Below, piece after piece: positions 7,167 through 10,666 of a DNA stretch of 11,954 bases. Below the pieces are notes generated by a model. It was not told where the DNA came from, did no database searches, and worked only from the letters and a program-made list of their open reading frames with translations. Both the position numbers and the translations under genes were made by a program. Each line of letters begins with the position of its first letter. The first letter of the stretch is position 1. Source of the stretch: a virus; the UHGV virus genome UHGV-2190786. The stretch is one strand, 5' to 3'.

Positions 7167-8987
7167 ATGTCAGATATCACCGCAAATGTTGTGGTAAGCA
7201 TGCCTTCGCAACTCTTCACTATGGCTCGTTCTTTTAAAGCCGTAGCTAATGGAAAGATTTATATCGGAAAAATTGACACTGATCCGGTAAATACTGAAAA
7301 CCAGATCCAGGTTTATGTGGAGAACGAAGACGGCTCTCATGTTCCTGTATCGCAACCAATCATCATTAACGCTGCTGGTTACCCGGTATATAACGGACAG
7401 ATTGCCAAGTTCGTAACTGTGCAAGGCCATTCTATGGCTGTTTATGATGCATATGGGGCGCAGCAGTTCTATTTTCCTAATGTGTTGAAGTACGACCCTG
7501 ACCAGGGAATTATCAGGTTAAAAGAAGAAATTGCGAAAGATGATGGAGAGAAATATATCGGAATATGCCCTGACGTTTCTACGCTCAGAACAATTGAGCC
7601 ATCATTCGTCGGGCAAAATATAACTGTTCGTGGATACTACTCTGACACACCCGGGCTTGGGGGAGGAACGTTTATAGCCTTTTCCAGTTCTGAAGCTGAC
7701 GATGGTGTGAATATTTTTGTTACCCCCGGCGGTAAGCGATGGAAGAGAGCAGGAAGCCACATCGATATTCCGGTAGAGAACGGTGGCATGATGACATCAT
7801 GTACGGCTGAGCAAAACAGTGAAGCCTTTGAACGCCTGACTGCATGCCTTCCATATGAAGGAGGTACGCTCAGACTCAATGGATTTTACGATATTAAGTA
7901 TGGCGCTATCGTGCCTCCACGTGTCACGCTGGAGGGGTGCGGTATGGATTCCTGTGGATTAATTAAAACAGGTAACGATATTAAAACCGTTCCGGATCGC
8001 ATGTGGCAGGGTGTACCACACAGCTTCTCCAAAGACTTTATTGTTGCGGTAGATATGGATAGCGATACGTCTGGTAGTCCAAATGGTCCAGTAGGTAATC
8101 AAGTCAGAAGCACCAGAATAATTGGATTGAGCTTAATATGCTCATCCATCACTCCATGCGCATTCGGGATCTATTCCAGTATCAGTTATGACGTCAGGCT
8201 ACAAGATTTATACGTAAAAAACGTAGGTATTGGATATCGTACCAGCGATAGTTGGCTGCAGTCATGGTCAACTATAACAGTTGAGAATGTTAATAAGGGA
8301 TTTTTTGTTGAAAATGGAGGTACATCATTCAATATATCAAATACTTATGTTAAAAATGCGTCATCAATTGCTTATCATTTTGTTAATATAACATACAGTA
8401 CGCTGACATGTACGGCAGCAGATTATATTAATGGCTCTGCTTATGCCTTTTTGGGCTGCACAAGTATAGTTATGAATGGGTGTGGGGCAGAGAATATAAC
8501 TGGTAGTGCTTTTGAGTGCAACCAGTCAAGAGTTACCATTAACTCTTTTAGAGGAGTGAAGTTTTTTGATGCTGGTAATATAGCTTGCATATTTACACAG
8601 TGTGCAATAGTAATGAGCGCTTGTTTTCTCCCTGAATTTGATGGTTCTTTTTCAAGTAAGTATTTTGAGCTTAATGATTCAACGATCAATCTGAACAATA
8701 CCGTTTGCCCGGATGCATCGAGAGTAAAATGGGGCGAGACAGCAGTGTCATGGATAAATTTCTCAAACTATGGCGGAAACTATACAATCTGGGGCGTTAC
8801 TGCTTGGACCGCAACAGGGTTCCTCGTAAATGGAATTGCTCATGTCTATGCGGAATTACCTCCTGATTCCTCTGTCACACAGTTTAGCCAAGGTGCTAGA
8901 TGGGAGCTGATAAGACCCACAGCTGGGAATAACTATAAATGGATTCATACCGGCGGAGGAGTCTGGAGAGCGGCAGGTAGTATATAA
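7167..8987 (+). CDS. Tailspike protein: P22 gp9-like N-terminal head-binding domain fused to a divergent beta-helix receptor-binding domain, 606 aa
   Basis: The start is ATG 7167, preceded by GGAG at 7156-7159. The N-terminus [42 protein letters not shown]...[13 protein letters not shown]...NVLKYDPDQ matches the P22 tailspike head-binding domain as I recall it. The remainder has a repetitive, Cys-rich N-x-S/T pattern typical of a parallel beta-helix and is not P22-like. The track's extension back to 7119 has no ribosome-binding site and no homology. Confidence 0.9.
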
Positions 8988-8990
8988 AAA

Positions 8991-9012
8991 AGAGGGCGGC
9001 TAGCCGCCCTCT
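8991..9012. terminator. Bidirectional intrinsic terminator between the convergent tailspike and gtrC genes
   Basis: A perfect GC-rich inverted repeat AGAGGGCGGC/GCCGCCCTCT is flanked by an A-run on the 5' side (which is a T-run on the minus strand, directly after the hairpin) and by AATAATTATT on the 3' side. It is the stronger terminator for the minus-strand gtr transcript. Confidence 0.7.
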
Positions 9013-9031
9013 AATAATTATTGAACTGTAG

Positions 9032-10666
9032 TTAATTTAAGGAATAAATTCCAATTGTTTTGTTTTCTTGTTTAACTACTAATTTGATAATTTTGTTAAT
9101 ATTTATTCCATAAACAGACATGCCAATATATAGTCTGCCATTAATGTTTACTGGCGAAGGCTTGAAGTCTTGAGCTTCGCTTTCTCCATTTTTAAAAATG
9201 ATACTCAATGAAATACTTTTATCAGCATTAAATTCTCGCTGATCCCCATTTAAGGCAAATGATAAGGTGCAAGGCATAAAACTTTTCGTGTCTGAATAGT
9301 AAAGGGAGAGCAGGCTCTCTCCTTGCAGTTCATTATTTATAACATGGCCAGATATAATGACAGAGTAGTCGAAATCTACCTTTTCAAGTTTTACACTATT
9401 TATGTTGTAATACTTTGAGAAAGCCATTGGGTTGAAAAATTCATCAAACCTATCGTTCGCATTTAGCAACTTACTGAAATAAAAATCAGGCAGTATGGTT
9501 TCACCGATTGAAGACTGCCTTGAATTTAATACAATGGCATCCCTTATCTTATTTTGATAAGAGACGGACTTATATGAATGATAAACGAAATAGTATGATG
9601 TTATAAATAACAACATTAGAGAGGCAATAGACAAAGAATACAAAGACCTTGTGATGATAGATTTATTTTGCGCTAAGTAATTAATAACGAACGATAATGA
9701 CATTAACGAGAAATAGAAACCTCCAGTCCATGACCTTGGAGGTGTGTAAGGAGAGCCAGCAAGAGAAATCAATGCTGTTAATGAGCAAATGAAAAATGCG
9801 GAACTATACAAGGCTTCATTACTTACCAATCTTCCTTTGATGTCACGAAAAACTATTGCTGCTGCAAATATAAATGACAGAGCAATTATTAAGCCAAAGG
9901 TAAGTAAAGGATACATCATCCGTTCTTCAATGTGGTATAAAAACCTTGTTAACAGAGGCCAACTATACCATTGCTGAAAGGACACATCCTGCGCTCTATT
10001 GAAGTTTCCTGGTGATAATATCAGCAGCGCACTTCCTACAAAAACACCAGAGCACAGTAAGCAAATGCTAATAAGGTTCTTTTTGCTTATCAGGAGCGAA
10101 ATAAAAATAATTAATACGCAGAAAAATGAAAGTGCAACAGAGGCGCTTTCATTAGAGCATCCGGCCAGAATCCCTATAAATAAAAGAAATGCTGTTTTAT
10201 ATTTGTTTAAAGAATCTTTCCATTTTAACAGGAAATATAGAAAAGAAACTACAAATAACATAGTTAATGAATAGTTGGCACTGCCAACTATCCAAAAAAC
10301 AGACTGCCCAAGATTGGGGTTAAAACACCAAAACACCATGAAAATTACTGGAAATACTGTTTTGACTTGGTTGCTTCCAGTAGCGGCATATGGTAGTGCT
10401 GATATAAAATAAATAATGACAACGATCAGTAGCGAATTAATTGCAGAGCGAACATAATAATCCTCAATATGTAATAGAATGTTTGATGTGTAATCAGCTA
10501 TAAACCTACCACTCCATGATAAATAGTGAGCTATGTGGTTAGTGAAATCTAAGCTCAATAAAGAATAGCTAAAATCATCAGAATGCAACGGAGTGTATAC
10601 TGCTATTGCATACACTAAAGCAAATGCAATGATGTAAATTACACTTACATTTGTGTTAATCTTCAT
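9032..10666 (-). CDS. gtrC: GtrC-like serotype-specific O-antigen glucosyltransferase: polytopic membrane protein, about 544 aa
   Basis: Its ATG (10666-10664) overlaps the gtrB stop (ATGA). The protein has many hydrophobic segments followed by a more hydrophilic C-terminal region. The gene is strongly AT-rich compared with its neighbours. It is third in a gtrA-gtrB operon, the usual place of the type-specific gtr gene. The track's N-terminal extension to 10912 would overlap gtrB by 250 nt and is rejected. Confidence 0.75.

Follow-up and report, generated by a model that had tools for sequence, protein, structure and literature searches.

Are the receptor-binding part of a phage tailspike and the genes that modify the phage's own receptor exchanged separately, or do they move together as one unit? 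The question is raised by the right-hand end of a P22-like (Lederbergvirus-type) Escherichia coli prophage contained in an 11,954-nucleotide (nt) stretch of the virus genome UHGV-2190786, the whole of which we call the window, where a tailspike gene and the O-antigen modification operon gtrABC meet tail to tail. An initial annotation of this DNA had suggested that the receptor-binding region of the tailspike and gtrC (8250-10666) may move as one exchangeable serotype module. Comparison with related loci leads us to the same conclusion: with a probability of about 0.78, the tailspike beta-helix, the hairpin behind it and the modifier gene or genes are exchanged together, as one cassette of a serotype-conversion locus of the P22/BTP1/epsilon34 type. 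The unit is redrawn at both ends, as it starts at tailspike codon ~300, rather than comprising the whole region after the head-binding domain, and reaches at its right end either into the 3' half of gtrB or over the entire gtr operon.

The cassette can be recognized as a block of high identity within diverged flanks. In the IMG/VR contig L017, the C-terminal domain of the tailspike (C-domain) and GtrC are 93% and 94% identical, respectively, to those of the window, and the sliding DNA identity between the two is 59-83% over 7100-8050, 91-100% over 8050-11150, and 67-81% over 11150-11954. Both transitions are abrupt: dense mismatches end at about 7997-8072, and identity within gtrB falls from 98-100% to 70-80% at about 11176-11194. 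Identity to L017 is not uniform inside the block: it reaches 98-100% over 10550-11100 (the 5' end of gtrC and the 3' half of gtrB) and is about 95% elsewhere, which hints at a second, more recent exchange nested in the first.

The complementary arrangement, a replaced block within identical flanks, is found in E. coli VE-T9 (L001). This locus matches the window without a single mismatch over 7458-8062 and shows dense mismatches from 8063 onward; its tailspike protein is essentially identical to that of the window up to residue ~303 and ~45% identical beyond, and a convergent 347-amino-acid (aa) acyltransferase occupies the place of gtrABC. Likewise, three cassette types (L002, L001, L012) share common left and right flanks at the argW attachment site, the right flank resuming ~70 nt past gtrA, before intS. 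A further locus, L047, is 93-100% identical to L017 up to codon ~295 and 41-64% identical after it, diverging at the same codon as the left joint of the window; compared with VE-T9, it is 65-82% identical in the N-terminal parts and 87-99% identical over the C-domain and the acyltransferase. Two diverged backbones and two cassettes are therefore present in all four combinations, and C-domain and modifier co-segregate. The apparent left joint recurs at tailspike codon ~300 (nt ~8063-8072), at the edge of a predicted linker and near a fall in GC content; a chimeric protein joined at this linker would be likely to fold. The right joint, as read from the alignments, lies either in gtrB (~11180) or just beyond gtrA.

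The domain structure of the tailspike was compared with the position of the joint. The open reading frame (ORF; 7119/7167-8987, plus strand) starts at the ATG at 7167, which has a GGAG ribosome-binding site 7 nt upstream and gives the 606 aa also found in the database copies. The N-terminal head-binding domain (7167-7508; aa 2-114), a P22 gp9-like adaptor, matches Pfam PF09008 Head_binding (E=9e-67), and the 5' end of the gene is ~90% identical in nucleotide sequence to the tailspike 5' ends of IME10, Sf101 and CUS-3. It is followed by a conserved middle domain (7509-8062; aa ~115-299; PF27114 Phage_tail_beta), recognized by amino acid conservation and in an AlphaFold2 (AF2) model, which would serve as the left recombination anchor. 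This domain is 80-100% identical across every cassette type and follows three kinds of N-terminal adaptor: the P22 head-binding domain, PF18668 Tail_spike_N, and an adaptor of ~215 aa in proteins of 700 aa. By itself, the ~215-aa adaptor is present in 511 genomes, joined to other receptor domains, SGNH hydrolases among them. The joint and interdomain linker (8063-8102; aa ~299-312) coincide with the onset of mismatches, the fall in GC content and a break in the AF2 model, which was built on 41 homologues and in which aa 304-312 (nt 8076-8102) have a predicted local distance difference test (pLDDT) score below 50 between two confident domains, aa 131-303 (82-96) and the all-beta aa 313-606 (86-98). 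The latter is the variable C-terminal parallel beta-helix domain (8103-8987), the left half of the cassette. Its Foldseek matches are parallel beta-helix tailspikes and depolymerases, including AS12 gp42 (6eu4; E=3e-16) and CBA120 TSP2 (5w6p; E=5e-12), and it is presumed, by analogy, to be the part that binds or cleaves the O-antigen.

The co-occurrence of this domain with gtrC could in principle reflect clonal descent only, that is, one prophage lineage resampled without any mobility of the module; many loci are indeed 99-100% identical to the window, and strains PSS-08-1, GZ2408P and APEC-O117H42 share a single remnant. We consider this very improbable, given the sharp identity steps at the edges of the cassette and the variety of contexts that it occupies. 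It occurs at two attachment sites whose integrases differ, argW beside intS (L002) and the lambda site (L023-L032, comprising full prophages and deletion remnants), and on the ~75% identical backbone of L017. In L046, a 93% identical C-domain is attached to a different tailspike adaptor, PF18668, with the same hairpin and the 3' end of gtrC behind it. A second cassette, of the P0012 type, has a GtrC that is 37% identical to that of the window and a tailspike receptor domain without similarity to the window's, and is 99-100% identical from gtrA to tailspike codon ~300 at three chromosomal sites.

Two side observations concern these loci. The argW remnant, consisting of tailspike-gtrCBA-intS, is found in three complete genomes of one lineage (L002/L050; APEC-O117H42, PSS-08-1 and GZ2408P, from human, pigeon and chicken sources), where it abuts a truncated dsdC; within these five genes, a tailspike ORF of 595 aa and the gtr operon are intact. 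In the cassette of the P0012 type, the tailspike of L006 contains a 400-nt patch (codons ~165-300, equivalent to L004 12650-13050) with only 55-73% identity and is 99-100% identical from codon ~300 through gtrB; here too, in another tailspike family, a joint inside the gene lies near codon 300.

As the initial annotation had anticipated, the tailspike C-domain co-varies with the type of modifier. Among ~40 related loci, the C-domains form at least seven clusters that are 42-64% identical between types, and no discordant pair was found wherever the neighbour could be read. Each of the seven variants that have a neighbour is accompanied by its own modifier, either a DUF6056 gtrC or one of six acyltransferases. 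Cluster 1, that of the window (14 loci), is paired with the window-type gtrC, cluster 2 (10 loci) with a co-directional 324-aa acyltransferase (AT324), cluster 3 (8 loci) with a convergent 347-aa acyltransferase (AT347), and cluster 4 (2 loci) with a convergent 653-aa acyltransferase-SGNH protein (AT653). The L018 and L049 types (1 locus each) have, respectively, a 324-aa acyltransferase that shares 38-41% identity with the one of cluster 2, and a 322-aa acyltransferase; L041, a virulent-type phage (1 locus), has no modifier. All loci with a window-type C-domain (92-100% aa identity) adjoin a window-type gtrC (94-100%). Retrieval through the conserved middle domain alone, a route that is unbiased as to pairing, yielded 12 informative loci, all 12 of them concordant; by our own arithmetic, random pairing would give this result ~9 times per million, a figure that shared ancestry inflates. 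Even the nearest GtrC outside the 90% cluster (64% identical; L003) lies tail to tail with a tailspike remnant that an insertion sequence (IS) has truncated and that shares 70% identity with the last 46 residues.

The pairing might be mere conserved synteny, with receptor domain and gtrC type assorting independently: the order of tailspike, conversion genes and attachment site/integrase (att/int) is generic in P22-like phages and is established for these and for Shigella phages (PMC2629481, PMC7685785; Kapi1 preprint 10.1101/2021.04.09.439263), and there are virulent phages whose related C-domains have no modifier at all. The lack of discordant pairs among ~40 loci of at least seven types, the high-identity block shared with L017, which spans both genes, and the joint segregation of two backbones and two cassettes nonetheless make this explanation highly unlikely.

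Tailspike and gtrC converge over a 44-nt spacer between their stop codons, and the tail-to-tail arrangement over one hairpin described in the initial annotation is confirmed. The spacer holds a single GC-rich hairpin with a 9-bp stem (8991-9012), with a folding free energy (dG) of about -18 kcal/mol (z = -3.7 and -4.0; 0 of 200 shuffles fold equally well). The further suggestion that both genes share this terminator holds better for one gene than for the other. On the minus strand (the gtrC transcript) the hairpin is followed by UUUUUUAUAU, a proper U-tract; on the plus strand (the tailspike transcript) it is followed by AAUAAUUAUU, which lacks a good U-tract. As an intrinsic terminator, it is predicted to be canonical for gtrC and weaker for the tailspike. 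A bidirectional terminator would have an A-run and a T-run on either side of the stem, to give both transcripts a U-tract; cassettes of the VE-T9 type have a fully symmetric version. L017 and L046 have the same stem and differ in the loop alone, and L003 keeps a shorter homologous stem; other cassette types have different hairpins and spacers. A search of 6000-11954 against Rfam gave no matches.

Base composition had been the original reason to group the two genes, and here the outcome is mixed. gtrC is AT-rich as described (33.9% GC; 32.7% at third codon positions, GC3), and gtrB (42-44%) and gtrA (46%) are not; the best two-changepoint fit over 6000-11954 falls at 9010 and 10700, the edges of gtrC. 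In the tailspike, GC is 44-46% up to ~8063, 36.9% (GC3 29.2%) over 8064-8699 and 47.9% in the final 288 nt, so that the gene shares the distinct composition of gtrC over 8064-8699 and not at its end, and the discontinuity starts at about 8063-8100 instead of at 8250. The entire C-domain has 40.4% GC, compared with 42-46% in its immediate neighbours and 46-52% in the structural genes further left. The tetranucleotide profiles of C-domain and gtrC (r=0.71) are closer to each other than either is to most other blocks of the window, although gtrC is almost as close to 6001-8063 (r=0.66), and the k-mer comparison thus favours the proposed module only in part. The remaining cassette types repeat the pattern (C-domains 39-41.5%, modifiers 31-36%); the virulent-phage C-domain has 45%.

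Amino acid usage in a membrane protein and a beta-helix, as opposed to a shared foreign origin, might also produce such AT-richness. The residues F, I, L, Y, N and K are frequent in GtrC, the C-domain has 49% GC at second codon positions but 39% at first positions, and AT-richness is absent from the final 288 nt of the tailspike. A pure amino acid effect is argued against by the low GC3 (32.7% in gtrC and 29.2% over 8064-8699, versus 38-60% in the genes to the left), and all other cassette types show the same pattern; we therefore regard amino acid usage as a rather unlikely explanation. In any case, the common AT-richness is weak evidence for a module, and the comparative data carry the argument.

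In the right half of the cassette, gtrC (9032-10666, minus strand; 544 aa) encodes a candidate polytopic membrane glucosyltransferase of the DUF6056 / GT_STM0557_N family (Pfam PF19528, E=8e-60) with at least seven hydrophobic segments. Its closest characterized relatives are the GtrC proteins of epsilon34 (gp20; 32.8% identity) and HF4s (28.7%). A longer gtrC of 626 aa, taken from the mechanical ORF at 9032-10912, was rejected, as it overlaps gtrB and every homologue and annotation begins at 10666. gtrB (10663-11595, minus strand), a predicted bactoprenol glucosyltransferase (Pfam GT2, PF00535, E=9e-31), is 83-85% identical in nucleotide sequence to the gtrB genes of SfI, SfII, SfIV, SfV and HF4s; its 3' half (10663 to ~11180) appears to travel with the cassette and its 5' half to act as the right recombination anchor. 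gtrA (11592-11954, minus strand), the first gene of the operon, encodes a predicted undecaprenyl phosphate (Und-P)-glucose flippase (Pfam PF04138, E=1e-13) and resembles the gtrA of Shigella phages. Stop and start codons overlap (ATGA) at both the gtrA/gtrB and the gtrB/gtrC junction. The promoter of the operon lies outside the window. Upstream of gtrA, ~125 nt are common to the argW and lambda-site versions (L025 6262-6713; L002 13455-13606), so the gtr promoter region travels with the operon. This upstream region (L025, L002) has one GATC only, unlike the Dam/OxyR phase-variable promoters of Salmonella gtr operons; a phase switch of that kind is unsupported by the single GATC in the 450 nt upstream of gtrA in L025.

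Some further observations on the operon stand apart from the question of exchange. The 90%-identity cluster of GtrC includes P0053, a partial protein of 139 aa from Citrobacter portucalensis, which hints that the cassette occurs outside Escherichia. The tailspike beside a window-type gtrC is often damaged while gtrCBA is intact: it is fused by deletion to the gp7 region in L023/L024 (9680-10955), truncated by an IS element in L003 (1773-3096) and broken into two ORFs in L044 (3073-4937). This is consistent with a host that retains the modifier and loses the phage.

Which O-antigen would this tailspike recognize? The O107/O117 wzx-wzy genes are found in 20 of 5426 complete E. coli genomes, and these include all four genomes that have the tailspike family of the window; cassette 1 is present in three of the four and cassette 3 in VE-T9. 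Two of these genomes have a further member of the tailspike family, which has the 700-aa-protein adaptor and its own acyltransferase. In addition, a draft genome labelled O117:H42 contains remnants of cassettes 1 and 2. The unit of the O107/O117 O-antigen consists of five sugars, and a single residue distinguishes the two serogroups (PMC7685785). Judging from this host association, the tailspike family appears to be specific for the O107/O117 O-antigen, and its alternative C-domains resemble variants inside a single serogroup; exchange would thus take place within one serogroup, because the variants in complete genomes are all in O107/O117 hosts. As a separate observation, O117 strains contain a second prophage type (L049, APEC-O117H42 1388033-1391383; VE-T9 1225676-1229029) with a 699-aa tailspike, a PF27114 middle domain, a C-domain that is 60% identical and a convergent 322-aa acyltransferase of its own.

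The enzymatic activities and the exclusion of cognate phages are inferred here by analogy with characterized phages, and the O117 specificity from the host association. The beta-helix domain would bind, and probably cleave, the host O-antigen, most likely of the O107/O117 type, and the convergent gtrABC would be expressed from the prophage. GtrB would load glucose onto undecaprenyl phosphate, GtrA would flip Und-P-glucose, and the type-specific GtrC would add glucose at one position of the O-unit. Glucosylation may thereby alter the tailspike's own receptor and should block this tailspike, as modification does in P22, BTP1 and HF4s, and the altered receptor would protect the lysogen both from phages of the same type and from cleavage by its own tailspike. 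The hairpin would end both transcripts and shield the gtr operon from late transcription.

How the parts stay together can be seen from the layout of the locus. Beta-helix, hairpin and modifier would form a hypervariable island between two anchors, the middle domain on the left and either gtrB/gtrA or the stretch before int/att on the right. Since hairpins and spacers are type-specific, there is no conserved DNA between the variable tailspike domain and the modifier; with anchors outside the island and no conserved DNA inside it, homologous recombination would replace the island whole. The same layout, with its type-specific intergenic hairpins and no internal anchor, permits a reading in which linkage is purely passive: the segments would have no functional match, and the receptor of the tailspike would not have to be the target of the modifier. 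Passive linkage overlaps the exchange of a single cassette favoured here, from which it differs solely in whether selection is involved. It would fit clusters 2 and 3, whose C-domains are 64% alike and whose modifiers are unrelated. We nevertheless find it quite unlikely as the only cause, since C-domain and modifier stay paired on several backbones and behind three adaptor families, the pairs diverge together (GtrC 64% with a tailspike end of ~70%; 93% with 94%), and functional matching has been demonstrated by experiment in BTP1, P22 and HF4s (PMC4413052; bioRxiv 10.1101/2021.06.09.447823). The persistence across three adaptor families suggests that selection for the matched pair may add to passive linkage.

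Several points weigh against the exchange of receptor domain and modifier as one matched cassette. The sample of ~40 loci on which co-variation rests is small and partly clonal, as the remnant shared by PSS-08-1, GZ2408P and APEC-O117H42 illustrates, and L023-L032 were retrieved through an identical GtrC. Virulent phages (L041 and the Kuttervirus tailspikes) have related C-domains (~60%) without a modification gene, the Kuttervirus tailspikes being the closest to the window's C-domain among isolated phages (62%), and the linkage of C-domain and modifier is accordingly not absolute. The unrelated acyltransferases of clusters 2 and 3 are also in opposite orientations. On the tailspike strand, no good U-tract follows the hairpin. 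The O117 link comes from four genomes that are possibly related to one another. Lastly, passive linkage without internal homology explains the pattern without selection for co-adaptation.

The locus can be placed beside several known systems. P22 (gene 9/gtrABC) and BTP1 (tailspike/gtrC(BTP1)) resemble the window in having a P22-type head-binding domain on a beta-helix tailspike and a convergent O-antigen modification operon immediately downstream, before att/int. The window differs in its host (E. coli O107/O117, not Salmonella), in the extra conserved middle domain with its linker joint, and in its receptor domain, which lacks detectable sequence similarity to the P22/BTP1 endorhamnosidases and is nearer, by Foldseek, to AS12 gp42 and CBA120 TSP2; moreover, the GtrC of BTP1 is of the acetyltransferase type and that of the window is DUF6056. 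GtrC of BTP1 protects the O-antigen from the convergent cognate tailspike and blocks superinfection (PMC4413052), and HF4s lysogens cease to adsorb HF4s (bioRxiv 10.1101/2021.06.09.447823). Epsilon34 (gene 19, tailspike; genes 20-22, gtrCBA) and HF4s are the nearest in their operon: both have a DUF6056-family GtrC and the same position behind the tailspike, and HF4s gtrB and gtrA share 85% nucleotide identity with those of the window. Their tailspike receptor domains are unrelated to the window's, and their acceptor specificity is surely different, because the GtrC proteins are only ~30% identical.

The gtr cassettes of SfI, SfII, SfIV, SfV and SfX likewise combine conserved gtrA and gtrB (83-85% nucleotide identity) with a type-specific third gene; conserved gtrA/gtrB with a type-specific gtrC is an already established pattern. 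The third gene of the Shigella phage cassettes is of low GC content, as Allison and Verma reportedly noted in 2000. Like the locus family of the window, the Shigella phage systems place several alternative modifiers on one O-antigen backbone, and the tailspike and oac acetyltransferase of Sf6/Sf101 are paralleled by the acyltransferase alleles found here. Unlike the prophage of the window, most of the Sf gtr phages fall outside the P22-like group and have tail fibres, and to our knowledge no matched swap of tailspike domain and modifier has been described for them.

Tailspike receptor domains are known to move horizontally, on different adaptors, among Lederberg-, Uetake-, Kutter- and other viruses (Pas et al. 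2023, PMC10408124). In contrast to that work, which concerns the receptor-binding protein alone, the exchanged unit described here includes the modifier, and its joint lies at an internal linker (codon ~300) and not just at the junction of adaptor and receptor-binding domain. We found no statement of joint block transfer of receptor domain and modifier in the full-text literature searched; key reviews lie outside that scope, and priority is uncertain. The novelty is modest: a recombination cassette that starts at an interdomain linker inside the tailspike, seen cleanly, and a multi-allelic series of domain/modifier pairs restricted to O107/O117 hosts.

The remainder of the window has the late-operon order of P22-type phages, which is repeated in related loci. 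Genes for a head-closure protein, the needle and gp14-, gp7-, gp20- and gp16-type ejection proteins (1-6208, plus strand; PHROG and Pfam) precede a moron on the minus strand, which encodes a lipoprotein-like ORF (6223-6744; 173 aa) and an Mnt/Arc-type repressor (6779-7078; PHROG/Pfam). The former ORF, located between the ejection genes and mnt, has a lipoprotein-type signal MKKSLLIIPILLVGC, no Pfam match and a sole match to PHROG 6067 (unknown function); as a moron, it might act in exclusion or at the surface. The window is matched at 99.8-100% identity by E. coli prophages that lie between ybhB and ybhC (L025, L030), a junction that presumably contains the lambda att core. Megablast of 7119-11954 found no isolated phage with the cassette, matches being limited to the head-binding domain and gtrA/gtrB. 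In complete E. coli genomes, near and distant searches found gtrC in three genomes only, all of one lineage, and two scans across species-representative genomes gave no matches.

Tentatively, and with well under even confidence, these loci can be seen as part of an arms race inside a serogroup, in which multi-allelic cassettes of receptor domain and modifier (at least seven variants; one Gtr and six acyltransferases) turn over within O107/O117 and are exchanged at the linker among P22-like and at least two other temperate phage types. Each modification would block its own tailspike variant and may leave the cell open to another, or create that variant's receptor, as in epsilon15/epsilon34. Phage host range, and even the serotype of the host, are predicted from the type of tailspike, and prophage modifiers silently change the real O-antigen. 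If receptor domain and modifier are one unit, typing the former would predict the latter and vice versa, and genetic serotyping of O107/O117 strains would miss phage-encoded variants. The linker joint at codon ~300 would be a natural splice site for the engineering of tailspikes or tailocins, and the matched pairs would offer a concrete set for studying how phages escape receptor modification by their relatives.

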